Part shown: positions 29,159 through 63,641 of the stretch, one piece after another
Layout of the letters: every line of letters starts with the position of its first letter
Numbering within the stretch: position 1 is the first letter of the stretch
Assembly (NCBI GenBank): GCA_035513155.1
Contig: DATKCO010000003.1
Span: forward strand, 543 to 64,542
From: Gemmatimonadota bacterium
GTDB lineage: Bacteria; Gemmatimonadota; Gemmatimonadetes; JACCXV01; JAHWKZ01
Reading direction: 5' to 3'
DNA length: 64,000 nucleotides
Position numbers and translations under genes: made by a program
The notes under the pieces: model-generated
The model's database searches: none
The model's input: only the letters and a program-made list of their open reading frames with translations
What the model was told of the DNA's origin: nothing

Positions 29159-29162
29159 GTCG

Positions 29163-33215: not shown

Positions 33216-33225
33216 GCGCCGGGGT

Positions 33226-36777: not shown

Positions 36778-36837
36778 GCGGGCCCGGCTCAGGGGGAGCG
36801 GCCGAGTGAGATGGCGAGGGCCGCGAGCACCCTCCCC

Positions 36838-38154
36838 TCACGGGACCGGGGCGGGCACCCCGTTCGCGCCCGCCAGGGAGGAGAGCGCGTCCAGCAGCTC
36901 GGTCGCGCGGGACCTCGTCCCGGCCAGGCACGCGACCCCGATCTTCCCGGCCTCGAGCGCGCTTGGCGACCAGGGGACGATCCCCTCTCCGCGTCGGGGA
37001 TCGTAGAGCCTGTCCCCGAGATGCCGCTCCAGCTCCGCGTAGTCGCGCGTCGCGACCGGGACGGTCCGGCTGAGGAATGCCTTCGGAGCGGGTCCGCCGA
37101 GGCGGCCCGCGAGCCGAACGAGGCGGGCGGTCAAGGCGTGGGGATACGACGCGCCGTTGACGCGGGGATTGATCTCCGCCAGGAAGTGACGCACCCGACC
37201 GTGGTGCTCGTGCTCGACGAAATCGAACCCGACCCGGCCGCGGAAGGCCTTCCGGCGCATCCAGGCCGCCATCGTGCGCGCGTCCTCGAGCATGCGGTCC
37301 TGTCGGCGGGCGCGGCTGGGATGGACGCTCCCCAGGTAGGCGAGGTCCCGATCGAGGAGCTGATCGGTGATCCCCAGTCGCAGCCCCCCGGGGTCGCCCC
37401 GCTCGACGACGACCTCCACGTTGGGGGAGACGAGCGACTCGTAGAGCGGCTCCACGAGCCAGAGCCGGTCGCCGGGCCTGCCGACGACGGCCTCGAGGAC
37501 CTCATCCAGGCGGTCGGGCTCGACGACGAACGTCGAGCTGCCGGACGCTCCCGAGGAGCCGCGGAGGACGGCGCGCCCGGTCGGTCGGGAGCGGTGCAGG
37601 ACGGCCCGCCGGAGACCCGCGAGATCCGCGCGCCCCGCGCCGCGCGGGATCCGCACGACGTCGCCCGGTGCCACCGGGACGCCGAGCGACCGGGCGAGCG
37701 CGCGTCCCGCGGACTTCTCATGAAGTCGCCGGACGAGGGACGCCGGACCGCCCGCGACCCGCACAGGCCGGCCGAGCCGGGATCGGAGGAAACGGCCGAG
37801 CGTCGCGGTCGCCGGGGTCGCGAAGAACGGGACGAGCTCGAGGGCCTCGGTCTTCCGGAGCCGGCAGGCGAGCCGGTCGAGGGACGGGCCGTCGGTCGCG
37901 ATGCGCGCAGAGAGCCCCGTCCCGGGCCGGATGCCGTCGAAGACGAGGATGTCCTCGGGTCGCGGGCCGATCCCGAGGCTCCGGAGGAACGCGACGTGCC
38001 GCGCGTCGACGGGGCGCGCGAGACACACGACGTCGCCCGGTCGTGCGAGCAGGAGGGCCCGCTCTCCGAGGCATTCGAACTCCGGCATGCGGACCGCGAT
38101 GTCGAGGGCGTTGGGGGCCTCGGAGGGACTGTGGAGGAAGATCCGGGTCGTCAC
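36838..38154 (-). CDS. ATP-grasp family protein with pre-ATP-grasp N-domain (PGM1-like peptide/amide ligase type)
   Basis: The GTG at 38154 overlaps the upstream stop (GTGA). 'VRHFLAEINPRVNGASYP' is the ATP-grasp C-terminal motif pattern. The upstream 209 codons of the track ORF overlap the ligase gene out of frame and were discarded. Confidence 0.6.
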   Translation of the reverse strand: MTTRIFLHSPSEAPNALDIAVRMPEFECLGERALLLARPGDVVCLARPVDARHVAFLRSLGIGPRPEDILVFDGIRPGTGLSARIATDGPSLDRLACRLRKTEALELVPFFATPATATLGRFLRSRLGRPVRVAGGPASLVRRLHEKSAGRALARSLGVPVAPGDVVRIPRGAGRADLAGLRRAVLHRSRPTGRAVLRGSSGASGSSTFVVEPDRLDEVLEAVVGRPGDRLWLVEPLYESLVSPNVEVVVERGDPGGLRLGITDQLLDRDLAYLGSVHPSRARRQDRMLEDARTMAAWMRRKAFRGRVGFDFVEHEHHGRVRHFLAEINPRVNGASYPHALTARLVRLAGRLGGPAPKAFLSRTVPVATRDYAELERHLGDRLYDPRRGEGIVPWSPSALEAGKIGVACLAGTRSRATELLDALSSLAGANGVPAPVP

Positions 38155-39386
38155 GCCCGGACGATCGGGCGCGGCTTCCCGCCTTCCGCGGTCCCGATCC
38201 GCGGGACCGCCTCGATCTCGAATCGGACGTCCGGGCCGAGCATGGCGGCGGCGGCCTCGCGCAGCTCCTGCCCCGAAGGCGGCCCCGCCCCCTCCAGGGG
38301 AACGTGGCGCAGGACGATCCGGTCCGGCGCCTCCTGGACGAGCTGGTACTGCCGGATCCAGGGCGCGGCGCCCAGAAGAGGCGCCAGGATCCGGTACGGA
38401 TGGATCGCGCGGCCGTCGGGCAGTTCGAAGTAGTCGATCGTCCGGCCCTCGATCCGGGCGAGCGTGGCTCCGGGATGGCCACACGGGCAGCCGTACGGCC
38501 CCGGGGTCACCGAGTCGGTCAGCCGGTAGCGGATGAAGGGGGCCGTGGAGAAGCTGAGCGCGGTGACGACGATCTCGCCGGTGTCCGGGGCGGTCGGGAC
38601 GGCGCCCGCCACCACCTCGACGATCAGGTCCGGCCGGCCGAGATGCTTGAGCCCGGCGGCTCGGCAGTCGGAGGCGATGAGCCCCACCTCGTGGGTACCG
38701 TAAGCGTCGTGGACCGGGGCCCCGAACGCGGACTCGATCCGCGCGCGCGCCATCGGCGTGACGACCTCGCCCGAGAGCCATACGACGCGCGGCCGGAGTC
38801 GCGGCCGGTCGTGGTCCGTCACGAGGCCGGCGACGCGCTCGATGACGCTGGGCAGCCCGCGCAGGAAGGTCGGTGGCGTCCGTCGGAGCTCCGCCAGGAT
38901 CTCAACGGGATCGAGGCAGCAGTCGATCATCCGCTCGTCGACGAGTCCCAGCCCGTTCAGGAGCGCGATCCCGTCGGGCCGGCCCTCGCGGTGGACGAAC
39001 ACCGAAGCCACGCGATCCCCCCGACGCAGCCCCGCCGCGAGGAGGTCGCGCAGCCAGCTCCGCGCCCAGAGCGCCTGCTCCGCCCGGCTCCGATGGACGA
39101 CGAGCGGCTCGCCCGAGTACCCCGAGGTCATCGTAGAGACCAGGGTCGAGGGGCGGGTGCCGCGGGCGACGATCTCCTCGATCGGGCGGTCGAGGAGATC
39201 CGCCTTCTCCATCACCGGGAGACGGGCGAGGTCGGCGATCCCGCGGACGTCTGCCGGGCGCAAGCCGGCCCGATCGAAGCGCTCGCGGTGGAACGGGACC
39301 CGCTCGTAGGCGTGAGCCACCAGCCCCCGGAGACGCCGGTCCCGGGTCTCCGCGTCGTTCCGCTCCGTTCCGGATGCGCGCGTCAT
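38151..39386 (-). CDS. Phenylacetate-CoA-ligase-family (PaaK / F390-synthetase-like) adenylate-forming enzyme
   Basis: 'LRGLVAHAYERVPFHRERFDRAGLRPADVRGIADLARLPVMEKADL...TMTSGYSGEPLVV' carries a TSG(S/T)TG-like P-loop variant. 'YGTHEVG'. Confidence 0.8.
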   Translation of the reverse strand: MTRASGTERNDAETRDRRLRGLVAHAYERVPFHRERFDRAGLRPADVRGIADLARLPVMEKADLLDRPIEEIVARGTRPSTLVSTMTSGYSGEPLVVHRSRAEQALWARSWLRDLLAAGLRRGDRVASVFVHREGRPDGIALLNGLGLVDERMIDCCLDPVEILAELRRTPPTFLRGLPSVIERVAGLVTDHDRPRLRPRVVWLSGEVVTPMARARIESAFGAPVHDAYGTHEVGLIASDCRAAGLKHLGRPDLIVEVVAGAVPTAPDTGEIVVTALSFSTAPFIRYRLTDSVTPGPYGCPCGHPGATLARIEGRTIDYFELPDGRAIHPYRILAPLLGAAPWIRQYQLVQEAPDRIVLRHVPLEGAGPPSGQELREAAAAMLGPDVRFEIEAVPRIGTAEGGKPRPIVRA

Positions 39387-39480
39387 GGCCGAAGGGTGTC
39401 CCGACGCGATGCCGGGGTGCAAGGGAGTCGCGGCTGGTCCTTCCTGTGCGGATCGGCCGGGCCGCATTTACCTTGTCCCC

Positions 39481-40014
39481 ATGCGGACGATGAGTCCCGC
39501 CGAGCCCGTTCAGCTGCGCCTCACGGTCAACGGGGAGCCGCGGGTCGTCTCGGCCCCGCTCCACCACACCCTGCTCGAAGTCCTGCGCGAGGAGCTCGGC
39601 CTGACCGGGACCAAGCACGGCTGCGAGCTGGGGGAGTGCGGGACGTGCACGGTCCTGGTCGACGGCGCGCCGGTCCTCTCCTGCCTCGCGGTCCCCGCCG
39701 CCCTTGAGGGACGGGAGGTCACGACGGTCGAGGGGATGGAGACCGCCGCCGGCCTTCACCCCCTCCAGCAGGCGTTCGTCGAGCTGGGGGCGGCCCAGTG
39801 CGGGTACTGCACGCCCGGGTTCCTGCTCGCCGCGATGGCGCTCCTCGACGAGTCGCCGCGGCCCGCGCGGGACGAGATCGTCGACGCGCTGGGCGGCAAC
39901 CTCTGCCGCTGCACCGGCTACCTGAAGATCTACGAAGCCGTCGAGCTCGCTGCCGCGCGGATGGAGGGCGAGGACGCCGAGCCCGCGGAGGAGACCCTGT
40001 ATGGCGAGGCGTGA
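39481..40014 (+). CDS. [2Fe-2S] small subunit, system 2 (HcrC-like)
   Basis: 'GTKHGCELGECGTCTV' and 'QCGYCTPGFLL...GNLCRCTGY'. Internal ATG at 39481. Confidence 0.9.
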   Translation: MRTMSPAEPVQLRLTVNGEPRVVSAPLHHTLLEVLREELGLTGTKHGCELGECGTCTVLVDGAPVLSCLAVPAALEGREVTTVEGMETAAGLHPLQQAFVELGAAQCGYCTPGFLLAAMALLDESPRPARDEIVDALGGNLCRCTGYLKIYEAVELAAARMEGEDAEPAEETLYGEA

Positions 40015-42475
40015 CGGAGGATCCGGCCTCAGGGTCGTCGGCCGCGCGCTGCCGAAGGTGGACGCGGTCGCGAAGGTGACCGGTCGAACGCGGTTCGCCG
40101 ACGACCTGTTCCTGCCCCGGATGCTCCACTGCCGCATGCTCCGCTCGACCGTGCCGCATGCCGAGATCCGCGCGGTCGACACGAGCGCGGCGGAGGCGAT
40201 GGAGGGGGTCGTCGCGGTCCTGACCGGGAAGGACCTGCCGACTCCGTACGGGATCCTTCCCGTCAGCCAGGACGAGCACGCGCTGTGCCTCGACAAGGTG
40301 CGGTTCATCGGCGACCCGGTCGCCGCGGTGGCCGCGATCGACGAGGAGTCGGCCGAGGCGGCGTGCCGCGCGATCGCGGTGGAGTACGCGGAGCTCGACG
40401 CGGTCGCGTCGATCGAGGACGCGCTCGACGGCGAGGACCCCGGAATCCATCTCTACGGCGACGGCCACAACGTCCACAAGGCGGTGGCGCTCGAGTTCGG
40501 CGATGTGGAGGCCGCGCTGGGCGAGGCCGACGTCGTGCTCGAGGACACGTTCTTCTACGAAGGGAATACCCACCTCCCGATGGAGCAGCACGCCGCGCTG
40601 GCGGACTGGCGCCCCGACGGGAAGCTGACCCTCTGGTCCTCGACCCAGACTCCGCACTATGTCCACCGCGCGCTGGCGCGCGTGCTGGAGACGCCGGCGA
40701 GCCGGATCCGTGTCATCGCCACGCCCAACGGGGGCGGCTTCGGCGGCAAGAGCGACCCGTTCAACCACGAGATCGTGGTGGCCGAGCTGTCCCGGCGGAC
40801 CGGCCGGCCGGTGAAGATCTGCTTGACCCGCGAGGAGGTCTTCTACTGCCACCGCGGCCGCCACCCGGTGCTGATGTGGGTGAAGACCGGGTTCCGGAAC
40901 GATGGCGCGATCACCGGCATGCACTTCCGCTCGTTCCTCGACGGCGGGGCCTATGGCAGCTACGGGGTCGCGTCGACCTACTACACGGGCGCGCTCCAGA
41001 CCGTGACGTATCCGGTGCCCGCGTACCGGTTCGAGGGTCTGCGCGCGTTCACGAACAAGCCCCCGTGCGGGCCCAAGCGCGGCCACGGCACCCCGCAGCC
41101 CCGCTTCGCTCTCGAGGTGCAGATCGACAAGGCGGCCCATCGGCTGGGCCTCGATCCCGCCCGCATGCGACTCGACCACCTGGTCCCGCCGGATTCGGTG
41201 ACGGCGAACTGGCTCCGGATCGGGTCGATGGGCCTCGGCGCGTGCATCGAGAAGGTCGTCGCGGCGTCCGGCTGGGAGGAGAAGCACGGCCGCCTGCCCG
41301 AGGGCCGGGGCGTGGGCCTGGCGTGCGGGAGCTACATCTCGGGCGCCGGCCTGCCGATCTACTGGAACGCGATGCCCCATTCGGGCGTCCAGCTCAAGCT
41401 GGACCGCGGCGGCGGCGTGACCGTCTTCTGCGGCTCGACGGACATCGGACAGGGATCGGACTCGATCCTGGCCTATGTCGTCGCCGAGGTTCTGGGCGTC
41501 GACCCGTTCGCGATCGAGGTCGTCACCGCCGACACGAGCCTGACCCCGGTCGACCTGGGATCGTACTCGAGCCGGGTCACGCTGATGAGCGGCAACGCCG
41601 CGCTCCAGGCCGCCGAGCGGGCGCGCGAGCTGCTCGTCCAGGCGCTGGCCGAGAAGTGGGAGATCCCCGGATCCCGCATCGCCCTGGCCGAGGGGCGCGC
41701 CTTCGACGTCGAAGACCCGGACCGGTCGATCCCGTTCGCCGACGCGGTCGTCGCGGCCGAGGCGAAGTTCGGGACGATCGGCACGGTGGGCTCCTACACG
41801 CCGCCCGCGTCGCCCGGGCGATACAAGGGCGCGGGGGTGGGACCCAGCCCGGCGTACTCGTACGCGGCCGCGGTGGCCGAGGTGACGGTCGACCCCGAGA
41901 CCGGCGAGACCCGGGTCGACGAGGTGTGGATCGCCCATGACATCGGGCGGGCGATCAATCCCGTCGTCGCGATCGGCCAGGTCGAGGGATCGGTGTACAT
42001 GGGCCTGGGAGAGGCGCTGATGGAGGAGATGACCTACCGCGGGAACCGCAACGTCGTCCACCGCCATCCGTCGCTGCTCGAGTACAAGAGCCCGACGACC
42101 CACGAGATGTGCCGGATCCACACGTTCCTGATCGAGGATCCGGATCCCAACGGGCCGTTCGGCGCCAAGGAGGTGGGGCAGGGACCGCTGCTCCCGATCC
42201 CGCCGGCGATCGTCAACGCGATCCACGACGCCGTCGGCGTCCGAGTGGACGAGGTGCCGGTGACGCCGCAGAAGGTGCTCGCCGCGCTCAAGCGGAAGGC
42301 GAAGGGGGAGGAGGCCCGCGAGGGACCGGCCGGCATCCCGGAATTCCCGTGGCCGGAGCCCGTGCGGGTGCCGCCGCCCTCGTCCGGCGGGGACGGCCGC
42401 GCGATCGACGACCCGCGCCACATCGGGGCCGGCGGCGTGCGGGACGGGGGCGTGACGGGAGGGGTGCCGGCATGA
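40001..42475 (+). CDS. Molybdopterin-binding large subunit, system 2 (4-hydroxybenzoyl-CoA-reductase-alpha/aldehyde-oxidoreductase-like)
   Basis: 'GRALPKVDAVAKVTGRTRFADD' and 'GGGFGGKSDP'. The C-terminal active-site loop reads 'GAKEVGQGPLLP', with Gln where the family normally has Glu. It has a low-complexity tail of about 50 aa. Confidence 0.85.
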   Translation: MARRDGGSGLRVVGRALPKVDAVAKVTGRTRFADDLFLPRMLHCRMLRSTVPHAEIRAVDTSAAEAMEGVVAVLTGKDLPTPYGILPVSQDEHALCLDKVRFIGDPVAAVAAIDEESAEAACRAIAVEYAELDAVASIEDALDGEDPGIHLYGDGHNVHKAVALEFGDVEAALGEADVVLEDTFFYEGNTHLPMEQHAALADWRPDGKLTLWSSTQTPHYVHRALARVLETPASRIRVIATPNGGGFGGKSDPFNHEIVVAELSRRTGRPVKICLTREEVFYCHRGRHPVLMWVKTGFRNDGAITGMHFRSFLDGGAYGSYGVASTYYTGALQTVTYPVPAYRFEGLRAFTNKPPCGPKRGHGTPQPRFALEVQIDKAAHRLGLDPARMRLDHLVPPDSVTANWLRIGSMGLGACIEKVVAASGWEEKHGRLPEGRGVGLACGSYISGAGLPIYWNAMPHSGVQLKLDRGGGVTVFCGSTDIGQGSDSILAYVVAEVLGVDPFAIEVVTADTSLTPVDLGSYSSRVTLMSGNAALQAAERARELLVQALAEKWEIPGSRIALAEGRAFDVEDPDRSIPFADAVVAAEAKFGTIGTVGSYTPPASPGRYKGAGVGPSPAYSYAAAVAEVTVDPETGETRVDEVWIAHDIGRAINPVVAIGQVEGSVYMGLGEALMEEMTYRGNRNVVHRHPSLLEYKSPTTHEMCRIHTFLIEDPDPNGPFGAKEVGQGPLLPIPPAIVNAIHDAVGVRVDEVPVTPQKVLAALKRKAKGEEAREGPAGIPEFPWPEPVRVPPPSSGGDGRAIDDPRHIGAGGVRDGGVTGGVPA

Positions 42476-43461
42476 TGCGGCTGCCCCGCTTCGAGTACCG
42501 CGTCCCGCGCTCGATCGACGAGGCGGTGGCGGCGAAGGGGGACGCGCCGCCGGACGCCGCGTACGTCGCGGGCGGCACCGATCTCTATCCGAACATGAAG
42601 CGCCGCCATCAGGAGCCCGGCACCCTGATCGCCCTCCACGCGGTCGAGGAGCTGAGGCGGATCGAGCCGCGGGAAGGAGGCGGCCTCGCGATCGGCGCGA
42701 CCGCGACCCTGACCGAGGTCCGGCGGCACCCCCGGGTGCGGGCGGACCATCCGGCGCTCGCCGAGGCGTGCCGGCTCATCTCCACCCCGATCCTCCAGAA
42801 CATGGGGACGCTGGGCGGGAACCTCCTGCTGGACACGCGCTGCAACTACTACGACCAGAACTACGACTGGCGGAAGTCGATCGACTTCTGCATGAAGAAG
42901 GACGGGACGATCTGCTGGGTGGCACCCGCCTCGCCGCGCTGCTGGGCGGTGCAGTCTGCGGACAGCGTGCCGCTCCTGGTGGCCCTGGGGGCCGAGGTCG
43001 ATCTCGCGGGACCGGGTGGGGAGCGGCGGGTGCCGGTCAGCGCGCTCTATCGCGACGACGGGATCCTCTATCTCGCCAAGCAGCGGGACGAGCTCCTGAC
43101 CCGCGTGCTCCTGCCGGCGCCCGACGGCTGGCGCGCGGTCTACCGCAAGGTGCGCCGCCGTGGCGCGTTCGACTTCCCGGTCCTCGGCGTCGGCGCGTGG
43201 GCGCGGTTCGAGGACGGCGGAACGGTGGCCGAGGCGCGGGTCGTCATGGGCGGGGTCGGCTCCGCCCCCGAGGCCGTCGAGGGGGCGGCCGCCGCGCTGG
43301 TCGGCGGGACGCTCGACGACGCGTCGATCGAGGCCGCCGCGAGCGCCGCGTGGAAGGCCGGCCGTCCGCTCGACAACACCGATTTCTCGATCTCCTGGCG
43401 CAAGGAGATGATCCGCCCCACCGTCGCCCGCGCGCTGAGAGACCTGCGGGACGGCCCATGA
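42472..43461 (+). CDS. FAD-binding medium subunit, system 2, with a four-Cys insertion (HcrB-like extra [4Fe-4S] loop)
   Basis: 'YVAGGTDLYPNMK' (FAD). The insertion 'CNYYDQNYDWRKSIDFCMKKDGTICWVAPASPRC' has spacing C-x15-C-x7-C-x8-C at residues 124/140/148/157. ATG overlaps the upstream stop. Confidence 0.8.
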   Translation: MMRLPRFEYRVPRSIDEAVAAKGDAPPDAAYVAGGTDLYPNMKRRHQEPGTLIALHAVEELRRIEPREGGGLAIGATATLTEVRRHPRVRADHPALAEACRLISTPILQNMGTLGGNLLLDTRCNYYDQNYDWRKSIDFCMKKDGTICWVAPASPRCWAVQSADSVPLLVALGAEVDLAGPGGERRVPVSALYRDDGILYLAKQRDELLTRVLLPAPDGWRAVYRKVRRRGAFDFPVLGVGAWARFEDGGTVAEARVVMGGVGSAPEAVEGAAAALVGGTLDDASIEAAASAAWKAGRPLDNTDFSISWRKEMIRPTVARALRDLRDGP

Positions 43462-44048
43462 GGGTCGGAGGGATCGTCCTCGCCGCCGGTCGCTCGTCCC
43501 GCATGGGGAGCGCCAAGGCGCTGCTCGAGATCGAGGGCCGGACGTTCCTCGAGCGCGCCCTCGGCATCCTTGCCGGGGGAGGCTGCGAGCCGCTCGTCGT
43601 CGTGCTGCCCGACGGCGCCTCCGCCGGTCGGGCGGGAGAGCTGGCCAGGGCCGGCGGGGCCGAGGCCGTGGAGAACCCGCTCGCCGGAGCCGAGCAGATC
43701 GACAGCCTCCGGGTCGGTCTCGCCGCCCTTCCGGACGACCTCGACGCGGCGGTCGTCCTGCCCGTCGACCATCCCCTGGCGCGCGCGGAGACGGTCCGGG
43801 CGCTCGTCGGGGCCTTCGGGGCGAGCGGAGCCCCGATCGTCCGACCCGTCTACCGCGACCGGCCCGGCCACCCCGTCCTGTTCGCCCGGGCCGTCTGGGG
43901 AGAGCTCGCGGACCCGACCCTCGACCGGGGCGCGCGCGACGTCGTCCACCGGCACGCCGGGGAGCTCCTCGACGTGCCGCTCGACGATCGCGGGGTCCAC
44001 GTCGACGTCGACACGCCGGACGACTATCGCCGGGAGGTCAAGCCGTGA
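43458..44048 (+). CDS. mocA: Molybdenum cofactor cytidylyltransferase-like nucleotidyltransferase
   Basis: 'GIVLAAGRSSRMGSAKALLEIEGRTFLERAL' is the MobA/MocA-type N-terminal motif. ATGA overlap. It follows a Mo-hydroxylase operon. Confidence 0.75.
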   Translation: MRVGGIVLAAGRSSRMGSAKALLEIEGRTFLERALGILAGGGCEPLVVVLPDGASAGRAGELARAGGAEAVENPLAGAEQIDSLRVGLAALPDDLDAAVVLPVDHPLARAETVRALVGAFGASGAPIVRPVYRDRPGHPVLFARAVWGELADPTLDRGARDVVHRHAGELLDVPLDDRGVHVDVDTPDDYRREVKP

Positions 44049-44863
44049 CGCGCCTCGACGTAGCGCGCGCCCTGGCGCTCGTCCAGGCCGCGGTCGCGGA
44101 GGGGCGGGACGCCGCGACGGCCGTGGTCGTGGCCGCCCCCGATCCGGCCCTGGTGGGACGCCGGGTCGTGTGGGACGGCGAGCGGCATCACGGAGGGCTG
44201 GGGGAGCGGTCGGCGGACGCGCGAATCCGGCGGCTCCTCAAGACGGCGACCGGGTCCGCGGGGTGCCACACGATCGCGGAAGGGCTCGAGCTCTACGTGG
44301 AGTGGTGGTCGCCCGCTTCGGAGCTCGTGATCGTGGGCGCCGGACACATCGCGCGCCCGCTCGCCGCCATCGGGCGACTCCTCGACTTCCGGGTCCTCGT
44401 GCTCGACGATCGAGCGGAGCTGACGACTCCCGAGCGCTTTCCGGGGGCCGACGTGCGGATCGTCGACTTCGCCGACCCGTTCTCGGGCCTCGAGATCGGG
44501 CCCCGGACGAGCCTCGTCCTGGTGACACGCGGCCACCGCTACGACTACGACTGCCTGCGCGCGCTCGTCCGGAGCGGGGCCCTCCCCGCCTACCTGGGTG
44601 TGATCGGGAGCCGCCGCCGGGTCCGCGCCGCCTTCGAGCAGCTGGCGGAGGAGGGGGTCGACGCCGCCTGGCTGGCGCGGATCCGCGCCCCCATCGGGCT
44701 CGACATCGGTTCCGAGACGCCGGCCGAGATCGCGGTGGCGATCGCCGCGGAGATCGTTCACGCCGTCCGCGGCGGGACGGGGCGGCCTCTCTCGGAGGCG
44801 GCCGACGTGCTGCGGCACGTGCGCGCGCTGAGCCGGTCGGCGACCGCCGGAGAGGGATCGTGA
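44045..44863 (+). CDS. xdhC: XdhC/CoxI-family Mo-hydroxylase maturation protein (with Rossmann domain)
   Basis: 'LVIVGAGHIARPLAAIGRLLDFRVLVLDDR...LVTRGHRYDYDCL...IGSRRR...PIGLDIGSETPAEIAVAIAAEI'. Confidence 0.8.
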   Translation: MTRLDVARALALVQAAVAEGRDAATAVVVAAPDPALVGRRVVWDGERHHGGLGERSADARIRRLLKTATGSAGCHTIAEGLELYVEWWSPASELVIVGAGHIARPLAAIGRLLDFRVLVLDDRAELTTPERFPGADVRIVDFADPFSGLEIGPRTSLVLVTRGHRYDYDCLRALVRSGALPAYLGVIGSRRRVRAAFEQLAEEGVDAAWLARIRAPIGLDIGSETPAEIAVAIAAEIVHAVRGGTGRPLSEAADVLRHVRALSRSATAGEGS

Positions 44864-45225
44864 GCGAGACGCTGGACGTCCTCGCGGCGTTCACCGACGC
44901 CGTGAGATCGGGACGGCCGGTCGTGCTGGCGACGATCGTGCGCGCGAAGGGCTCGACGCCCCGGGGGGTTGGGAGCCGGATGGCGATCGAGCCGGACGGC
45001 GAGGCGGTGGGCACGGTCGGCGGGGGATGCGGCGAGGCCCAGGTCCTGGAGGAGGCGCGAGCCGCGCTCGGAGCGGGCCGGGCACGACTGGTCCGCGTCG
45101 ACCTGACCGAAGACCTCTACTCGTGGAGCCCCGCCATCTGTGGCGGCGTCTTCGACGTCCTGCTCGAGCCGTGGTCGCCCGCGCGGACCCCGGGGACCCG
45201 CGGACCTCGATTCGAGGTAGAATAG
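44860..45225 (+). CDS. XdhC N-terminal-domain-only protein
   Basis: GTGA overlap start. 'VVLATIVRAKGSTPRGVGSRMAIEPDGEAVGTVGGGCGEAQV'. Confidence 0.7.
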   Translation: MSETLDVLAAFTDAVRSGRPVVLATIVRAKGSTPRGVGSRMAIEPDGEAVGTVGGGCGEAQVLEEARAALGAGRARLVRVDLTEDLYSWSPAICGGVFDVLLEPWSPARTPGTRGPRFEVE

Positions 45226-52915: not shown

Positions 52916-53191
52916 ATGGAGACGCGGAAGTGCGTCGTTCGCGGGCGTGTCCAGGGAGTCGGGTTCCGCTGGTTCGTGACGCGGAACGCCAAGGACCTGG
53001 GTGTCCGCGGCACGGTGCGAAACCGCACGGACGGAGCCGTCGAGGCGGTGCTCCAGGCCGACGGGCCGGAGCCCGTGGAGAGCCTGATCGCGCGCATTCG
53101 CAGCGGCCCGCCCGCTTCCCGCGTGGAGGCCGTCGACTGCGCGCCGGTGGACGACGGCGCGCGCTTCGAGCGGTTCGAGGTCACCGGATGA
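52916..53191 (+). CDS. acyP: Acylphosphatase
   Basis: 'VRGRVQGVGFRWFVTRNAKDLGVRGTVRNRTDGAVEAV'. Confidence 0.85.
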   Translation: METRKCVVRGRVQGVGFRWFVTRNAKDLGVRGTVRNRTDGAVEAVLQADGPEPVESLIARIRSGPPASRVEAVDCAPVDDGARFERFEVTG

Positions 53192-57051: not shown

Positions 57052-57963
57052 TTGCCAGCTAGATTCCCACCCGTGCCCGCCAGCCCACGCATCCTGATCC
57101 ATCTCGACCACAACCCGCACCCGCGGGTCTTCGACCAGATCATGTCGCTGGACGGCGGCGCGGATCAGATCCTCGCCCACGGCGACGTCGATCCCCAGGA
57201 CGTGCCCGTGCTCGTGTCGGGAGCTCTCTACTCGAGGCCGCGGGACGAGCTCCACCGGACCGCGCTCCTGATCACGGGCACCAACGACCACGTCATCGAC
57301 GAGATGGTGCGGCAGGCGCGGCGCGCCTTCTTCGGCCCGTACCGGATCTCGCTCATGTCGGAGTGCAAGGGCGGCAGCACGGTCGCCGGCGCGACCGTGG
57401 CGCGGGTGCGTCAGCTGGTGAACCTGACGAAGGCGCGCGTCGTCGTGATCGGCGGCGGCCCAGCGGGCGGCCGGGTCGCCGGCATCCTCGCCTCCGAGGG
57501 CGCACGCGTGCGCCTCTCCGTCTTCGACGAGGAGGAGGCCGACGAGCGGCGCTCGTTCGTCGAGGAGATGTTCGAGGAGGAGATCGAGGCCGTGGTCTGG
57601 AAGACCGGCGAGCCGCTGGAGGCGCTCGTCGACGGCGCGCGGGTCGTGATCACGGCGGGCCCGCCCGGGCTCCTCCTGCTGCCCCGCCGGGTCTGGTCGG
57701 CGATCGACGGTTTGGAGCTCCTCGTCGACATCAGCGGCGCCGAGCCCGCGGGGATCGAGGGGCTCTCCGGCGAGGAGGACGGCGATCCCCTCCCCAACGG
57801 ACACCACAACGTCCTCGCCGTCGGCGGGCTCGCCGTCTCCCGCTACAAGATCCGCGTCCACCGCGCGGCGGTGGCGGGCCTGTTCCATCGGGAGGCGGTC
57901 GTCCTCGGCCCCGTCGAGATCGCCAGGCTGGCGAGGGAGATCATCACCCCGTCCCTCGATTGA
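57052..57963 (+). CDS. NAD(P)-dependent methylene-tetrahydromethanopterin/methylene-H4F dehydrogenase (MtdA/MtdB)-family homologue
   Basis: It aligns by eye along its whole length to MtdA as I recall it: 'VFDQIMSLDGGADQILAHGDVDPQDV', 'FFGPYRISLMSECKGGSTVAGATVA', 'VVVIGGGPAGGRVAGILASEGARV', 'LAVGGLAVSRYKIRVHRAAVAGLF'. The start is either TTG at 57052 or GTG at 57073. Confidence 0.7.
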   Translation: MPARFPPVPASPRILIHLDHNPHPRVFDQIMSLDGGADQILAHGDVDPQDVPVLVSGALYSRPRDELHRTALLITGTNDHVIDEMVRQARRAFFGPYRISLMSECKGGSTVAGATVARVRQLVNLTKARVVVIGGGPAGGRVAGILASEGARVRLSVFDEEEADERRSFVEEMFEEEIEAVVWKTGEPLEALVDGARVVITAGPPGLLLLPRRVWSAIDGLELLVDISGAEPAGIEGLSGEEDGDPLPNGHHNVLAVGGLAVSRYKIRVHRAAVAGLFHREAVVLGPVEIARLAREIITPSLD

Positions 57964-58188: not shown

Positions 58189-59628
58189 CTATACGATCCG
58201 GAAGTAGTCGACCAGCACGCATCGCCGCCGGCGCACGAACGTCCGCGCCGACGTCGGGCCCTCTCCGGTGGGGGTCGAGATCGTCATCGCGGTCGGTCCT
58301 TCCCCGCCGAAGCCGAGCCCGGCCAGGCTGGGGCCGTTCTTGACGAAAATCGAGCAGTTCATCGCCACGGCCATGCGGTGGAGGGCGTCCAGGTCCTTCG
58401 AGTGCATGCAGGCCGTGTGCTTGAAGTCGTGCTCGAGCTCGACCGCCCAGTCGATCGCGGTGCGCACGTCGGGACAGCGGATGAGCGGCACGACCGGCGT
58501 CAGGAGCTCGAGGACCGCGAACGGGTGGTCCTTCGTCGTCTCGGCGACGAGAAGCCGGGTGGTTGCGGGAACGTCCTTGCCGATCAACCCCGCGAGCACG
58601 GCGGGGTCCTTCCCCACGAACTCCTTGTCCATTCGGGGCTCGGGGCCGGGATAGCCGGTCAGGATCGCGCGCGCCAGCGACTCGGCCTCGTCGGCGGAGA
58701 GGAGGACCGCGTCGTTCCGCTCGAGCTCGGCCAGGAGATCGTCGGCGATCGCGGCCTCGGCGAGGATCTCCTTCTCGCACGTGCAGACGACGTTGTTGTC
58801 GAACCCGGCGCCGGCCACGATGTCGCGCGCGGCCCGGGCGAGGTCCGCCGTCCGGTCGACGACGACCGGAGGGTTTCCCGGACCCGCCGCGATCACGCGC
58901 TTGTCGGACGCCTGCGCCGCCCGCACGACCCCGCCACCGCCGGTCACGACCAGCAGGTCGATCCCGGGGTGGTGGAACATCGCCTGCGCGGCCTCGATCG
59001 ACGGCTCGGCCACTGCGGTCAGGAGAGTCTCCGGTCCCCCCACCTCCGCGGACGCAGCGTTCATCAGGTGGATCGTGCGGTTGGTGACCGCGCGGGCCAG
59101 GGGGTGGGCGCCGAAGACGACCCCGTTGCCGGACGCGATCATCGAGATCCCGTTGTTGATGATCGTGGCGGCCGGATTGGTCGACGGGGTGACCGCCCCG
59201 ATGACCCCCCAGGGCGCCAGCTCGGTCAGCGTGAGGCCGTGGTCGCCGGAGAGGATCTCCGGCTGAAGGTCCTCGGTGCCGGGAGTCCGGTCGACGACGA
59301 GGCGGTTCTTGAGCGTCTTGCTGGGAACGTTGCCGAGGCGGGTCTCGGCGACTGCTTCCTCGGCCAGCGCGGCGGCTTCTTCTCCGAGGCGCTTCCGCTG
59401 GTTGGCGATGATCCGGTCGCGCAGCTCGAGCGTCCGGATCTCCCGCTGCGCGGCCCGGGCGGCGGCGACGGCCTGGTCGACGGTCTCGAAGATCCCCAGC
59501 GAGCCCGATCGTGGGGGCTCTCGCTCTCCGGCGCCAGCCGTCGGGGTGGGCGCGGCGCGGCGCCCACGGTCCAGCTCGGCCGTGATGCGGTCGACGATGG
59601 TGCGGATCTCGCGTTCGGTCAGCGACAC
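58189..59628 (-). CDS. CoA-acylating aldehyde dehydrogenase (EutE/PduP-type) with N-terminal encapsulation-peptide-like helix
   Basis: Catalytic region 'FDNNVVCTCEKEIL'. The C-terminus 'TISTPTGEGPTSARTFVRRRRCVLVDYFRIV' is typical of BMC AldDH. The N-terminal amphipathic 'EREIRTIVDRITAELDR' is followed by a Pro/Ala/Gly linker. Confidence 0.9.
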   Translation of the reverse strand: MSLTEREIRTIVDRITAELDRGRRAAPTPTAGAGEREPPRSGSLGIFETVDQAVAAARAAQREIRTLELRDRIIANQRKRLGEEAAALAEEAVAETRLGNVPSKTLKNRLVVDRTPGTEDLQPEILSGDHGLTLTELAPWGVIGAVTPSTNPAATIINNGISMIASGNGVVFGAHPLARAVTNRTIHLMNAASAEVGGPETLLTAVAEPSIEAAQAMFHHPGIDLLVVTGGGGVVRAAQASDKRVIAAGPGNPPVVVDRTADLARAARDIVAGAGFDNNVVCTCEKEILAEAAIADDLLAELERNDAVLLSADEAESLARAILTGYPGPEPRMDKEFVGKDPAVLAGLIGKDVPATTRLLVAETTKDHPFAVLELLTPVVPLIRCPDVRTAIDWAVELEHDFKHTACMHSKDLDALHRMAVAMNCSIFVKNGPSLAGLGFGGEGPTAMTISTPTGEGPTSARTFVRRRRCVLVDYFRIV

Positions 59629-59688
59629 GGATGGTGAGGCTCGGAGCGGCGGCGCGCGACCTCGGGCCGCGCGCCGGGCTCGGCGAGA

Positions 59689-59964
59689 CTACTCGGCGAC
59701 GATCGGGAAGTGTGCGTCCAGGTCCGAGTGCGGACGCGGGATCACGTGCACGGAGACGACCTCGCCCACCTTCTTCGCGGCGGCCGCGCCGGCGTCCACG
59801 GCGGCCTGGCAGGCAGCGACGTCGCCGCGGACCAGGGCCGTGACATAGCCAGCGCCGATCTTCTCGTACCCGACGAGCGTGACGCGCGCGGCCTTGACCA
59901 TCGCGTCGGCGGCCTCGATGAGCGCCACCAGCCCGCGCGTTTCGATCATCCCCAGTGCTTCCAT
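59689..59964 (-). CDS. BMC-H shell protein (single PF00936 domain)
   Basis: '[59 protein letters not shown]...VHVIPRPH'. Strong RBS GGGAGGAG. Confidence 0.95.
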
Positions 59965-60060
59965 TCGGGTTCTCCTCCCGGCCGAGGGGTCGTGCGGATG
60001 AGCGTCTCGCGCGCCGGCGAACGGCGCGTGTTCCTGGAATCAGGTCCTCGTGAAATCGAC

Positions 60061-60099
60061 CGGCCGGGGTCCTCCTGGTCGGTGCGGAGGAGCCGGCCG
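60061..60099 (-). other. Strong stem-loop inside the 167-nt gap between pta and the BMC-H gene
   Basis: 'cggccggggtcctcc-tggtcggtgc-ggaggagccggccg' forms a GC-rich stem of about 14 bp with one mismatch. No T-tract follows. Confidence 0.4.
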
Positions 60100-60131
60100 T
60101 TGAGCGAGTTTAAGCACGATGTTCCCGCTAT

Positions 60132-61145
60132 TCAAGTCGGTCCGCCCGATCGGGTCGCCTGGACGCAGCCGATGAGCGCCACGTTGACGAGGTCCTCGGC
60201 CGAGGCGCCGCGCGAGACGTCGTGCATCGGGGCGGCGAGTCCCTGGAGGAGGGGTCCCAGCGCGGTCATGCCCCCGAACCGCTGGGCGAGCTTGTAGCCG
60301 ATGTTGCCGCTGTCGAGATCGGGGAACACGAGCACGTTGGCCCGGCCCGCGAGCGGGCTGTCGGGCGCCTTGGCGGCGGCGACCTCGGGGACGATGGCGG
60401 CGTCGAGCTGGAGCTCGCCGTCGACGACGAGGTCGCCCCGCCGCGCGCGGACTTTCCGGGTCGCCTCGACGACTCGCTCCACCCGCGCGTGTCGGGCACT
60501 CCCCCGGGTCGAGAAGGAGAGCATGGCGATCCGCGGCTCCTCGCCGGTCAGGGCGCGGTGGGTCTCGGCGCTCGTGATCGCGATGTCGGCGAGCTGGTCG
60601 GCCGACGGAACGGGGACGACCCCGCAGTCGGCGAAGGTGTAGGCGGTCCCGTCTCCGGCCACCATGAGGAAGGCCGACGACACGGTGGCGATCCCGGGCG
60701 CGGTGCCGACGACGAGGATCGCCGCGCGGACGGTCTCCGCGGTGGTCGAGAGGTTCCCCGCCACGCAGACGTCGGCCTCCCCCCGCGCGACCAGGGACGC
60801 GCCAAAGCCCGGCCCGGTCTCGAGGAGGGCGCGGGCGTCGCGGGCGGAGGCCTCCCTTCCCCGCGCCCGCCAGCGCCCGGCGAGCTCGTCGGCGGAGGCG
60901 TCGAGCCGGGGCGAGCCGGAGGGATGGACGAGCTCGATTCCCTCGAGGCCGACGCCGGCGCGGTCGGCGGCCTCGCGGAGCGCAATCGGCCCGCCGAGGA
61001 GGACGACCCGAGCGAACCGTTCGTCGGTGAGGCGGCGGGCGGCGAGCGCGGCCCGCGGGTCCGCGCCATCGGCGAGCACGACCCGGCGCGGGCCGGCGCG
61101 CCGCGCCCGGTCCCGCAGCTCGGCGAGCAGATCGCGGCGGGTCAT
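60132..61145 (-). CDS. pta: Phosphate acetyl/acyl-transferase (PTA_PTB domain only)
   Basis: '[17 protein letters not shown]', '[20 protein letters not shown]' and '[23 protein letters not shown]'. ATGA overlap with the upstream small gene. Confidence 0.9.
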
Positions 61146-61456
61146 GGGCCGAGGCGCTCGAGCAGCCGGCGGGCGATCTCGCGGACCTGCGCGGGATCGG
61201 CGCCCGGCACCCGCGCGCGGACGCGCTCGACGATCCGCTCGGCGTCGTCGGGATCGCAGGTGGCGGACCGGCGCCCGGCGGGGGGCGTCGCGGCCGAGCG
61301 CTCGACGGTCGCCTCGACCAGCTCGACCGCGCGCCGGGACGCCTCGTCCCGCGCCAGCGGGGTGACGATCGCGTCCAGCGGCACGGCGAGCCGGGTTTGG
61401 CCCGCGCGTGCGGCCGCGCGGACGTCCTCGGCGGAGACGACCGGCCGGCTCACCAC
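61142..61456 (-). CDS. Small BMC-locus protein (104 aa) of unknown function downstream of ParA
   Basis: GTG-GTG start 7 nt after the parA stop. '[33 protein letters not shown]' recalls the short 'TP(L/S)ARD' N-terminal motif seen in some Eut/Pdu-associated proteins. A central low-complexity stretch is followed by a C-terminal amphipathic '[13 protein letters not shown]'. Confidence 0.5.
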
Positions 61457-61463
61457 CGCCCCC

Positions 61464-62261
61464 TCACGGCTTCGGCACTCCGTCGCGGGCGGCCCGCCAC
61501 CGGCCCACGATCTCCGCCGCGGCGGAGTAGTAGGCGGCGGCCCCCGCCGACTCGGGATCGACCTCGTACAGGAGACGGCCATCCCGCGCCGCCTCGGCCA
61601 GCGCGACGTTGGTCGGGATCGGGGCCTCGATCAGCAGGCTCCCCCACTCCTCGATCATGCGCGCCAGGCACTCCCGCGCCACCCGCGTCCGCCGGTCGTA
61701 GAGCGTCGCCAGGTAGCCGAGCACGACAAGCCGCGGGTTCAGGTGTCGGCGGACCCGATCGACCAGATCGATCGTCCGGGGGACGCTGGCCAGGGCGAAG
61801 GGATGGGTCTGGACCGGGATCACGACCCCGTCCGCGAGCCGGAACGCGTTCACGGTGTAGAGGGAGAGGGCCGGCGGCACGTCGAGCACGGCGAGCCGGA
61901 ACGGCAGGTCGTCCGACCATGCCTCCCACAACAGGCTCTCGCGGTCGGGCATGGACGCGAGCTCGGACTCCAGGGTCCCCAGGCTCTCGTGGGCGGGCAG
62001 GATCGAGAGGTTCTCGTAGGCGGTCGGCTGGACGGCCGGCGCGATCCCCTTCGAGGGGTCGATCAGCACATCGGTCAGCGTGGTCCGGAGGGCGGCCGGA
62101 TCGAGGCCGAGGTGCCGGGTGGCGGAAGCCTGGGGGTCGAGGTCGACGAGCAGGGTCGGGACGCCGATCTCGGCGAACGCGCCGGCCACGTGGACGGCCG
62201 AGGTCGTCTTCCCCACGCCGCCCTTGGCGTTGGCGAAGACGATCGAGAACGGCCGCGGCAC
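61464..62261 (-). CDS. ParA/MinD-family P-loop ATPase encoded inside the BMC operon (McdA-like by position)
   Basis: Deviant Walker A with signature Lys 'FANAKGGVGKTT'. 'LLVDLDPQASAT'. Walker B 'LAVLDVPPAL'. GTG start 4 nt after the shell gene stop. Confidence 0.9.
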   Translation of the reverse strand: MPRPFSIVFANAKGGVGKTTSAVHVAGAFAEIGVPTLLVDLDPQASATRHLGLDPAALRTTLTDVLIDPSKGIAPAVQPTAYENLSILPAHESLGTLESELASMPDRESLLWEAWSDDLPFRLAVLDVPPALSLYTVNAFRLADGVVIPVQTHPFALASVPRTIDLVDRVRRHLNPRLVVLGYLATLYDRRTRVARECLARMIEEWGSLLIEAPIPTNVALAEAARDGRLLYEVDPESAGAAAYYSAAAEIVGRWRAARDGVPKP

Positions 62262-62264
62262 CGC

Positions 62265-62852
62265 TCACCCGGCCGGGTAGTAGCGGCTCTCGACCTTCTC
62301 GATCACGCCCTCGTCGAGGAGCTCCTTGACGAGGACGATGAGCCGGCGCCACTCCGTGCCGAGCGCCTCGCCGAGCTCGGGGAGCGTGATCCCCTTCGCG
62401 CCGGCGCTCCGGACGGCCCCCAGGCTACGGGCGCGCAGATCGCCGTTGGCCGGCGGCGGCTCCCGCCGGCCGCGGCCTCCCGCGCCACGGGAGGCGTCCC
62501 CGCGGGCGGCTCCCTGCCCTCCGATCCGGCCGCCGAGCGTGTGCCGGACGGGATAGGTGCCGATCCGGCGGTCGCCCGGCAGGACCCCGACCAGGAGGTC
62601 GGTGGCGTCGTGGGGACGGGGGATCACGTGGACGGCCACCAGCTCGCCGACCCGGGCCGCCGCCACCGCGCCGGCGTCGGTGGCCGCCTTGACCGCGGCC
62701 ACGTCCCCCCGCACCAGGATCGTGACGAGTCCCCCCTCGGCGTACTCCCGCTTCTCGATCTCGACGGCGGCCGCCTTCACCATCGCGTCGGCGGCCTCGG
62801 TGGCGCCCACGAAGCCGCGGGTCTCGACCATTCCCAGCGCGCGCCCGGCCAC
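62265..62852 (-). CDS. BMC-H domain shell protein fused to an Arg/Gly-rich linker and a C-terminal winged-helix-like domain (EutK-like architecture)
   Basis: N-terminus '[56 protein letters not shown]...VHVIPRPH'. Linker '[28 protein letters not shown]'. C-terminus '[38 protein letters not shown]'. Confidence 0.85.
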
Positions 62853-62854
62853 CC

Positions 62855-63508
62855 TCAGTACCTCACCGGCTCACGGGCGACCTCGAGGACCGCCTTCTCG
62901 AACGCCTCGCACGCCGCCCGGCAATCCGCCTCGCTCCCGGTCACGAGGGCGCCGGCCATGTTCGTCGGCGTCGGCGCCGGCATCCACTCCGCCAGGTCGA
63001 CGGCCGCCTGCTTGAGCGCATGGTCGAGCGCCCAGGTCGCCTCGAGGGGGGCGGCCTTCAGGTAGGCGAGCGACTCCCCTGGCTCGATCCCGGCCCGCGC
63101 CGAGAGGTGGGTCCCGGTCCGGGCGACGAGGTGCGCGAAGTACCGCTGGAGCCCCCCGGCGCCGGCGGCCCGGTAGCTCACGCGCGACTCGAGATGAGAG
63201 ATCGCAGCATCAAGTCCCGCAGTGACTTCCGCGATCTTGTCGCTCGCCAGAATCGCGAGGGTCTCGCCGCTGGTCGGCCCCGACGGATGGGCGGCCCCGC
63301 CGTAGAACGAGCGGGCGGAGACGACCTCGACCCCCGCCTTCTTCGTCGCCTCGTCGATGGCGACGTAGGTGCAGTCGTCCTGGTCGACGGTGAGGAAGCC
63401 GACCGCGACCTGGCCCTCGTCGAGCCCCAGCGCCTCGGCCAGGGCGCCGGCCACGTTGGGGATCGTGCGGACCGCGAGCACGCGCGGCGTCAGCGTCGTG
63501 GTGGGCAT
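62855..63508 (-). CDS. BMC-T tandem-domain shell protein (EutL-like, permuted)
   Basis: It is colinear with EutL as recalled: '[25 protein letters not shown]...[17 protein letters not shown]...[46 protein letters not shown]...[24 protein letters not shown]'. Confidence 0.9.
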
Positions 63509-63641
63509 CCGGTCTCGGGAACGGGAGGAGAATCGTCGGGATCGCGGTCAGCGTATTCTACGGACCGGCCCCGGACGCGGTCAAGCGCTCTATATTCCCG
63601 GACGTCCGAGCTCCCCCCTTTCCCGCTTCCCGGAGACCGCG

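Follow-up and report, generated by a model that had tools for sequence, protein, structure and literature searches.

Among the bacterial microcompartments (BMCs) described to date, the ethanolamine-utilisation type EUT1 of Escherichia coli and Salmonella, for which we use the annotated E. coli K-12 operon eutSPQTDMNEJGHABCLKR as reference, is the closest known system to an operon that we analyse here in a 64-kb stretch of Gemmatimonadota DNA (GCA_035513155.1, contig DATKCO010000003.1, positions 543 to 64,542; hereafter the window, whose own coordinates are used unless a locus is named). The operon (58189-63508) encodes an EutL-type tandem-domain shell protein (BMC-T), an EutK-like shell protein in which a BMC-H domain is fused to a C-terminal winged helix, a ParA/Soj-type ATPase, a 104-amino acid (aa) homolog of EutQ's N-terminal region, an EutD-type phosphotransacetylase (Pta), an EutM-type BMC-H shell protein, and an EutE-type acylating aldehyde dehydrogenase (AldDH). 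We read it, with a probability of about 60%, as an EUT1-lineage, acetaldehyde-oxidising metabolosome module that is positioned by ParA and whose aldehyde source and pentameric shell proteins (BMC-P) are unlinked or absent. The new elements are mainly the pairing of ParA with the EutK-like protein and the minimal gene set; the shell and core components themselves are EUT1 relatives.

Assembly of the Salmonella Eut compartment needs EutM, EutL, EutK, and the N-terminus of EutQ (PMC12487888). Residues 1-99 of EutQ are sufficient to target green fluorescent protein to Eut BMCs; in this region, shell binding at EutM/EutL is the task of H1/H2 and binding of the EutC and EutE encapsulation peptides that of H3/H4, a flexible region is required, and the cupin domain that follows is dispensable for assembly (PMC12487888). 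EutK is needed for partitioning of the compartments, and the authors of that work speculated that it has a ParB- or McdAB-like role (PMC12487888). ParA- or McdA-like genes have previously been noted near non-carboxysome BMC operons, for example in PDU and GRM loci. In the type descriptions of the 2021 BMC catalog (Sutter et al.), EUT1 occurs only in Beta- and Gammaproteobacteria.

Results

The shell proteins and core enzymes are EUT1 relatives

Six of the seven genes are related to E. coli EUT1 proteins, and the operon preserves the sub-orders eutL-eutK and eutQ-(T)-D-M-(N)-E. An earlier note on this DNA had described a metabolosome-type operon of seven co-directional genes; the Pfam and NCBIfam assignments (BMC, AAA_31/CbiA, PTA_PTB, and Aldedh) bear out the first part of this description, and all seven open reading frames (ORFs) were found where the note had placed them, on the minus strand, with strong coding statistics in a background GC content of 70-75%. 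The note had also judged the composition to be unlike EUT layouts, and here we disagree: the NCBIfam cut-offs for EutL, EutM, and EutE- and EutD-type proteins are passed, the fused shell protein has the architecture of EutK, and the sub-synteny is kept.

The BMC-T belongs to the permuted tandem-BMC pseudohexamer type, scores 255 bits against the NCBIfam EutL model (NF011934; cut-off 198), and shows 48% identity to E. coli EutL in a full-length alignment (217 aa; blastp). The 91-aa BMC-H scores 150 bits against the NCBIfam EutM model (cut-off 133) and is 78% identical to E. coli EutM (88 aa aligned; blastp); its 90%-identity cluster has 110 members, from soil metagenomes. The public contig record (HUF88488-HUF88493) already names EutL (HUF88493.1), EutM, a ParA family protein, a phosphate acetyltransferase, and an aldehyde dehydrogenase.

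The Pta matches Pfam PTA_PTB with an E-value of 3e-104 and NCBIfam NF007233 with 357 bits (cut-off 310), and it is 53% identical to E. coli EutD (324 aa aligned; blastp). Its presence in place of PduL had been taken as atypical; it is instead an EUT1 trait, because the catalog, in its type descriptions, gives a pfam01515 phosphotransacylase (PTAC) as the main feature that separates EUT1 from EUT2. The AldDH scores 611 bits against NCBIfam NF011927 (cut-off 403) and aligns end to end with E. coli EutE, N-terminus included (50% identity, 479 aa), with 32% identity to the EUT2-type AldDH of a Synergistales locus. In 12 orthologs the AldDH's N-terminus consists of a conserved amphipathic helix (consensus M-x-L-[ST]-E-x-E-I-R-x-I-V-D-R-I-T-x-E-L) followed by a variable P/A/S/G linker, so that the encapsulation-peptide layout proposed for this enzyme is upheld. 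The operon is predicted to make an acyl-phosphate yet encodes no acetate kinase, that is, both the EutQ cupin domain and EutP are absent.

The 104-aa protein is a homolog of the EutQ N-terminal region

The 104-aa protein, listed earlier as unknown, has no Pfam match in a general scan, including no cupin domain (PF06249); against the NCBIfam EutQ model it matches positions 4-84 (E-value 2e-7), and a 32-sequence profile of its family aligns with residues 1-113 of E. coli EutQ with an hhalign probability of 93% and an E-value of 3e-7, covering EutQ residues ~3-83. In the family, an N-terminal domain of ~45 aa and a C-terminal segment of ~40 aa are conserved, with a variable P/A/G/S linker between them; the AlphaFold2 (AF2) model of the window protein has an alpha/beta domain (residues 1-48; predicted local distance difference test (pLDDT) ~90), a disordered stretch (51-65), and a helical hairpin (69-101). 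The family-invariant residues D71, R74, and P84 align with E68, R71, and P81 of E. coli EutQ (hhalign); by our renumbering, the first two positions correspond to E64 and R67 of Salmonella EutQ, which appear in the published list of residues that contact the EutC encapsulation peptide (PMC12487888). The 104-aa protein is thus a candidate stand-alone shell-cargo linker, predicted to have the layout of EutQ 1-99 and not that of full-length EutQ; its likely client is the AldDH.

The family includes 170 homologs of ~100 aa, and every match with a named organism is from Gemmatimonadota. In a library-wide profile search the domain was found in 247 representative clusters; 42 of the 88 longer representatives are EutQ cupin proteins, and the remaining longer representatives with a Pfam match are mostly BMC-locus enzymes (RpiB, PduL, PduO-type adenosyltransferase, triosephosphate isomerase, EutC, and a PF02441 flavoprotein). 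A few unrelated, apparently eukaryotic proteins are also among the matches. The H1/H2-type domain looks like a widely reused BMC anchoring module.

Two arrangements outside the Gemmatimonadota involve the same domain. In Acidobacteriota metagenome-assembled genomes (MAGs; L022 9971-11624 and L032 10004-11625), an H1/H2-type N-terminal domain is fused to RpiB; the next gene encodes a DeoC that has a Cys motif and an N-terminus resembling an encapsulation peptide, and shell genes are absent within 10 kb. In an EUT2-type locus of Synergistales (L025 10001-11342), the sequence for the domain lies immediately upstream of the AldDH coding region, to which it may be fused. An apparent fusion of the small protein with Pta (P0134, 459 aa) was rejected as a frameshifted gene call in a noisy assembly.

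The EutK-like shell protein carries a winged helix

Residues 1-90 of the EutK-like protein form an ordinary BMC-H domain, in which the KAA and PRPH edge motifs are present (Pfam BMC, E-value 1e-24) and which is 69% identical to EutM and 45% identical to EutK of E. coli. This domain is followed by a conserved segment, a variable linker (16-60 aa in the orthologs, usually R/G-rich, net charge 0 to +10), and a conserved domain of ~60 aa that ends in the invariant motif ESRYYPAG. The C-terminal domain is a predicted winged helix in the AF2 model (pLDDT 88; three helices followed by two strands), and its Foldseek matches are the winged helices of MarR, SelB, and Z-alpha proteins; these two lines of evidence confirm the earlier description of a BMC-H/winged-helix fusion. 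In hhalign the domain aligns with the C-terminus of E. coli EutK with an E-value of 2e-4 and a probability of 45%, SRYY lying over SRYR. The architecture is therefore that of EutK, with orthology uncertain. A search with a winged-helix profile returned 11 truncated fragments only and no wider family; compared with PDB sequences, the profile gave marginal helix-turn-helix matches only and did not retrieve the EutK C-terminal domain.

An exact look-up found neither the window's EutK-like protein nor P0001 on record. The public contig record assigns no protein accession to the gene: HUF88492 is ParA, HUF88493 is EutL, and nothing lies between them. The gene is also uncalled in GCA_035708865.1 (L003 8608-9192), yet it is intact and conserved in all related loci.

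A related domain was found in a different setting. The JGI contig Ga0209121_10002595 (L064) encodes at 4866-5666 (+) a 266-aa protein with apolipoprotein-like amphipathic repeats, the C-terminal domain of which is 49% identical to the window winged helix (GISLAEIGEKMGVEWRRLIRPTKELL). The gene is part of a gas-vesicle cluster, in which it adjoins a gene for a GvpN-like AAA_5 ATPase and lies ~1.7 kb upstream of a GvpL/F gene; a winged-helix domain of this type is therefore found on two different protein-shelled organelles.

A ParA ATPase is encoded beside the EutK-like protein

The ParA protein (Pfam AAA_31, E-value 3e-36) has the deviant Walker A motif KGGVGKT. Its nearest solved relative is Soj of Thermus thermophilus (E-value 6.5e-40; residues 7-258 of 265, that is, 252 residues, aligned), and its match to the solved McdA (6NOO) reaches an E-value of 9e-11 only. 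An arginine of the window protein aligns with that of the Soj D-x-R-T motif, which we take to be the counterpart of Bacillus subtilis Soj R189, a residue needed for non-specific DNA binding. The gene lies between those for the EutK-like and EutQ N-terminal-like proteins in 17 of the 18 genomes that carry the operon (see below), and, of the 17 metagenome contigs that are long enough to show it, 16 have it after the fused gene. No ParB domain (PF02195) was found by Pfam among the 59 window genes, which sets the operon apart from ParABS systems; no search for centromere repeats was made.

The operon of one genome (L019 4937-5789) has no ParA gene, and the stop codon of its EutK-like gene is 8 nucleotides (nt) ahead of the small-protein start. 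In this genome the EutK-like linker is among the shortest, and the basic IRRAG motif in helix 1 of the winged helix is replaced by AIAEAA; the short linker and the loss of IRRAG are a supporting observation, from a single genome, for a link between ParA and the EutK-like protein.

Components that are not encoded and the relation to catalogued types

Searches (tblastn) with all 17 E. coli Eut proteins found no EutA, B, C, G, H, J, N, P, R, S, or T in the 64-kb window, and none of these in the 10-kb flanks of the operon in the 18 genomes; as a control, the EutB and EutC queries recover both genes in the Synergistales locus. A custom hidden Markov model for BMC-P, run with --max, found no BMC-P in the window or within 10 kb in the related Gemmatimonadota loci. 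The model was built from five sequences, E. coli EutN and the BMC-P genes of the control loci L025 and L029, so that its recovery of the latter is no surprise; independently of the model, tblastn with only E. coli EutN as query finds the BMC-P genes of L025 and L029 at 30-36% identity. A Pfam scan of the 59 window genes found no aldolase, glycyl-radical enzyme, diol dehydratase, ethanolamine lyase, aminotransferase, or alcohol dehydrogenase. The window thus has no signature enzyme, alcohol dehydrogenase, or BMC-P, as the earlier note had maintained, and, since it encodes no aldehyde-producing enzyme, the substrate cannot be read from the locus.

The operon shares with EUT1 the proteins EutL, EutM, EutD, and EutE, the last with its N-terminal encapsulation peptide (48-78% identity), as well as an EutK-like shell protein composed of BMC-H and a helix-turn-helix domain and a homolog of the EutQ N-terminal linker. 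EUT1 has in addition EutBC/A/T, EutN, EutS, EutG, EutH, EutJ, EutP, and EutR; its EutQ carries the cupin (acetate kinase) domain PF06249 that the window homolog lacks; and it has no counterpart of the ParA in the window operon. The hosts also differ: all 18 genome matches and every named protein match are Gemmatimonadota MAGs, outside the catalogued range of EUT1. EUT1 is the closest known system, and the operon falls outside it in taxonomic range, signature enzyme, and pentamer; in descriptive terms, it is a metabolosome whose core is incomplete.

The earlier note had raised the question of whether the gene set corresponds to a catalogued locus type. As far as the catalog's type descriptions go, it does not: no type described there, MIC, MUF, FRAG, HO, and ACI included, has it, and the complete EutL/PduB tree file of the catalog has no Gemmatimonadetes entry. 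As described in the catalog, the incomplete-core and unknown-function metabolosomes resemble the window operon in being AldDH-containing BMC loci with no obvious aldehyde-generating enzyme. EUT2x, likewise an EUT-derived locus that has lost its signature enzymes, differs in that it derives from EUT2C, occurs in Bacillales, has BMC-P, and is mostly found together with a complete EUT2 locus. For MUF2 and FRAG8, which are Gemmatimonadetes types, BMC-P triplets are described, and for MUF2 also a PTAC and aldolases, which sets them apart from the window operon. The SPU6 loci of Chloroflexi, by the catalog's description, likewise contain a short EutQ-homologous protein with no Pfam match in a metabolosome locus; this likeness to the 104-aa protein is one of description only, and both BMC type and phylum differ.

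The operon is conserved in a clade of Gemmatimonadota

Scanning one genome per species with the small-protein profile, we found full-length matches only in 18 Gemmatimonadota MAGs (species level). In all of these except the ParA-less L019, the genes follow the order BMC-T, EutK-like, ParA, EutQ N-terminal-like, Pta, BMC-H, AldDH, and all ORFs are intact; identity to the window proteins is 56-76% for the small protein, 72-87% for AldDH, and 92-100% for the 91-aa BMC-H. A metagenome scan with the winged-helix profile identified 19 more contigs with the same order (L048-L063 and the truncated L065 and L066). Because the order recurs in 18 genomes and 19 metagenome contigs, the gene set is not a product of chance. 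The flanks are also syntenic, with an S58 peptidase gene upstream (and a leucyl-tRNA synthetase gene also upstream in L002 and L003) and genes for a TPR protein, MobA, and adenine phosphoribosyltransferase downstream; this synteny of flanking housekeeping genes points to vertical inheritance of the operon in a clade of soil Gemmatimonadota.

Six genomes (L002, L005, L006, L010, L011, and L015) have a 2.1-kb gene, oriented like its neighbors, between those for Pta and BMC-H (e.g., L005 6097-8208 and L010 ~11375-13472). We considered this 2.3-kb insertion as the missing signature enzyme and rejected it: its product is an S9 prolyl oligopeptidase of 703 aa that has a signal peptide and is hence exported.

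Operon borders and regulatory elements

The first five genes are separated by gaps of 2, 3, 7, and -4 nt, the stop of the 104-aa gene overlapping the Pta start (ATGA); 167 nt lie between the Pta and BMC-H genes and 60 nt between the BMC-H and AldDH genes (Table 1). The sigma-70-like promoter P1, ~47 nt 5' of the BMC-T gene, is the sole promoter-like site found by a consensus scan across 5.8 kb (0.1 expected), and CTTGAC and TAGAAT/TAGGTT are kept at its position in nearly all related loci, the sequence farther upstream being divergent. On the 5' side a spacer of 133 nt ahead of the BMC-T start is followed by the divergent, plus-strand S58 peptidase gene; on the 3' side the AldDH gene runs against a convergent gene for an Mpt_N-type dehydrogenase. 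The seven genes are a bounded operon with its own conserved promoter, and, because the promoter and the divergent S58 gene bound the 5' side and the convergent gene the 3' side, no operon member lies past the window edge. The novelty claim of the earlier note would have failed had a signature enzyme plus BMC-P lain just past this edge in the same operon, and none does.

Table 1. Genes and regulatory elements of the operon, in window coordinates.
Feature	Position	Strand	Basis
EutL-type BMC-T, 217 aa	62855-63508	-	Pfam BMC, NCBIfam EutL
EutK-like BMC-H with C-terminal winged helix, 195 aa	62265-62852	-	Pfam BMC, AF2
ParA/Soj-type ATPase, 265 aa	61464-62261	-	Pfam AAA_31/CbiA
EutQ N-terminal-region homolog, 104 aa, candidate stand-alone shell-cargo linker	61142-61456	-	NCBIfam EutQ, hhalign
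EutD-type (Pta, PF01515) phosphotransacetylase, 337 aa	60132-61145	-	Pfam PTA_PTB
EutM-type BMC-H, major shell protein, 91 aa	59689-59964	-	Pfam BMC, NCBIfam EutM
EutE-type acylating AldDH with N-terminal encapsulation peptide, 479 aa	58189-59628	-	Pfam Aldedh, NCBIfam NF011927
Sigma-70-like promoter P1, TTGACC-18-TAGAAT	63555..63584	-	consensus scan and conservation
Putative internal promoter P2, TTGAAT-17-TAAACT, 5' of the BMC-H gene, overlapping the Pta stop	60107..60135	-	conservation
GC-rich hairpin GCGCCG-TTCGC-CGGCGC in the BMC-H gene leader	60011..60027	-	conserved in 8 loci

A second site, P2, was not flagged by the consensus promoter scan. It is kept in the window's subclade with either Pta or the inserted peptidase gene upstream, that is, in two reading frames, and the 3' end of the insert reaches its conserved TTGAAT element; we regard P2 as a putative promoter on the basis of this conservation. 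The hairpin in the BMC-H leader is likewise kept with either gene upstream; it has a folding energy of -15.6 kcal/mol when 50 nt of context are taken, and it is followed by a strong ribosome-binding site, GGAGGAG. Rfam gave zero matches along the operon, with neither a B12 riboswitch nor an ANTAR-type element.

Discussion

A model for the compartment and the evidence against it

In the model that we favor, the EutM-, EutL-, and EutK-like proteins would tile the facets of a shell; by analogy with Salmonella Eut (PMC12487888), the small protein would dock on EutM/EutL via its N-terminal domain (H1/H2) and capture the encapsulation peptide of AldDH with its C-terminal hairpin (H3/H4), thereby linking the cargo to the shell. 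Inside the compartment, AldDH would oxidise an aldehyde to acyl-coenzyme A (CoA), and Pta would recycle CoA and release acyl-phosphate; the kinship of AldDH with EutE and of Pta with EutD makes acetaldehyde the most likely substrate. The aldehyde-generating enzyme, NAD+ recycling, and pentamers, none of which is coded in or near the operon, would be unlinked in the genome or absent. The position of its gene suggests that ParA, in its ATP form, would bind the nucleoid and space the compartments.

Several points weigh against this model. The pathway is incomplete as encoded, because the operon has neither a signature enzyme nor an alcohol dehydrogenase. A closed shell from the operon alone is doubtful, since no BMC-P is encoded and Salmonella eutN mutants form elongated, defective compartments (PMC12487888). 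The EutK-like protein does not match Pfam EutK_C (PF16365) even at an E-value of 10 (6e-27 for the E. coli EutK control); because of this, and because EutM is a nearer relative of its BMC domain than EutK is, the fusion may have arisen by convergence and not be an EutK ortholog. The net charge of its winged helix is roughly zero, so support for DNA binding is weak. As to ParA, we infer its link to the compartment from gene position only, and the EutK-like and small proteins persist in the genome that has no ParA; ParA-dependent positioning has been demonstrated for no metabolosome in the literature, and positioning of the Salmonella Pdu compartment is independent of ParA and MinD (PMC12866334).

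Alternative explanations

The absent parts could also be accounted for by an ethanolamine-utilisation BMC that has become fragmented, with EutBC (plus EutA and EutT), EutN, and perhaps EutG elsewhere in the genome and with ethanolamine degraded as in E. coli. All BMC-related genes of the operon are of the EUT1 type, as this would require, and the catalog describes 57 EUT1 loci that are split in two, EUT modules that are satellites in HO and SPU6 genomes, and fragmented BMC loci in Gemmatimonadetes. We nevertheless consider it unlikely: the searches found no Eut signature gene in 64 kb or within 10 kb in the 18 genomes, the operon is served by a promoter of its own and lies between stable housekeeping flanks, and the EUT1 loci of the catalog's type descriptions are confined to Beta- and Gammaproteobacteria. 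The same dispersal could instead have produced the AldDH/PTAC/BMC-T/BMC-H half of a sugar-phosphate (DeoC-type) BMC resembling FRAG8, with a BMC-P triplet and an acetaldehyde-making pfam01791 aldolase at other sites. The FRAG8 loci described in the catalog are mostly from Gemmatimonadetes and are complementary to the window operon in content (BMC-P triplet, BMC-H, and DeoC, with no AldDH in 4 of 7 loci and no PTAC listed), and dispersed arrangements do exist, as in the Acidobacteriota in which an RpiB fusion lies beside DeoC with no shell genes within 10 kb. We rate this origin a shade less probable than a fragmented EUT system. The FRAG8 AldDHs are described as ACI-like and as having a C-terminal encapsulation peptide, whereas the window enzyme is EutE-like, and the window shell proteins are EUT1-like, not SPU-like.

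Finally, the operon might be the decaying remnant of a horizontally acquired EUT1 operon into which an unrelated ParA gene was inserted and which makes no functional compartment. Essential EUT parts are indeed missing (EutBC, EutN, and EutG), and the secreted peptidase gene in six genomes indicates that the locus tolerates insertions; a remnant would, however, hardly keep seven intact ORFs in 18 genomes at the BMC-H and AldDH identities given above, a conserved promoter, encapsulation peptide, and linker-protein domains, and a ParA gene fixed at one position with gaps of 3 and 7 nt. This pattern indicates purifying selection, not decay, and makes a remnant very improbable.

A shell protein as a possible adaptor for ParA

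Within the model of a ParA-positioned EUT1-lineage module, the partner of ParA can be considered further. The termini of BMC-H proteins face outward on shells; together with the gene order, this suggests that ParA would contact the EutK-like tile at its cytosol-facing R/G-rich linker and winged helix, and that the tile would then fill the adaptor role held elsewhere by McdB or ParB. Our tentative proposal, which has a lesser chance of being right than the model itself, is that the shell tile is the ParA adaptor, its linker and winged helix engaging nucleoid-bound ParA-ATP, DNA, or both, so that spacing and inheritance would be achieved by two parts and no free McdB or ParB; the clade may also run a pentamer-less, aldehyde-scavenging compartment that has no dedicated signature enzyme.

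The likeness to McdAB positioning of carboxysomes is that of a ParA-family ATPase encoded in a BMC operon beside a candidate partner with a disordered, charged region; in addition, the EutK-like protein has a conserved Tyr near its C-terminal end (YPAG, the last four residues), reminiscent of the aromatic residue that McdB-like proteins have within the last 4-5 positions, but the invariant YY at -5/-4 lies in a predicted wing strand of the folded domain (63-66, that is, residues 190-193). The differences are that the window ParA resembles chromosomal Soj far more than the solved McdA, that the operon has no free McdB-like protein, and that the candidate partner is a shell protein. Unlike McdB-like proteins, the 104-aa protein ends in LERLGP/GG, with no C-terminal aromatic residue, and is a predicted lumenal linker.

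If the proposal is correct, the long-unexplained DNA-binding-type domain of EutK gains a function. Both the positioning of metabolosomes and the role of the nucleic-acid-binding-type domain of EutK are open questions, and the ParA gene beside the EutK-like gene in 17 of 18 genomes provides a concrete, testable pair. The operon also extends EUT1-type components beyond Proteobacteria, in minimal form. It retains the set necessary for assembly in Salmonella except for the pentamer EutN, plus two CoA-cycling enzymes, and thus offers engineers, and studies of what shells require, a natural "minimal Eut chassis"; with signature enzyme and pentamer missing, it is a test case for metabolosomes that are assembled from dispersed genes or that act as open aldehyde sinks.

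Other genes in the window

The convergent gene at the 3' border (57073-57963, +) encodes a protein with an Mpt_N domain (the N-terminal domain of methylene-tetrahydromethanopterin dehydrogenase) and an NAD(P)-binding domain. It adjoins the operon in five other genomes, not in all; we rejected it as a partner enzyme of the compartment, given its opposite strand, the lack of an encapsulation peptide, and its absence beside several orthologous operons, and regard the association as synteny only. An acylphosphatase gene (52916-53191, +) lies ~5 kb from the operon, probably by coincidence.

The remaining window genes encode functions in efflux, purine/urate catabolism, trehalose synthesis, and housekeeping, as well as two molybdenum hydroxylases. 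The purine/urate block (25907-45225) contains genes for an allantoinase-like amidohydrolase, allantoicase, OHCU decarboxylase, HIU hydrolase, a PuuD-type urate oxidase, and a DUF6986 protein; it is accompanied by the two molybdenum enzymes, which are separate three-subunit members of the xanthine-dehydrogenase family, and XdhC/MocA-type maturation genes.

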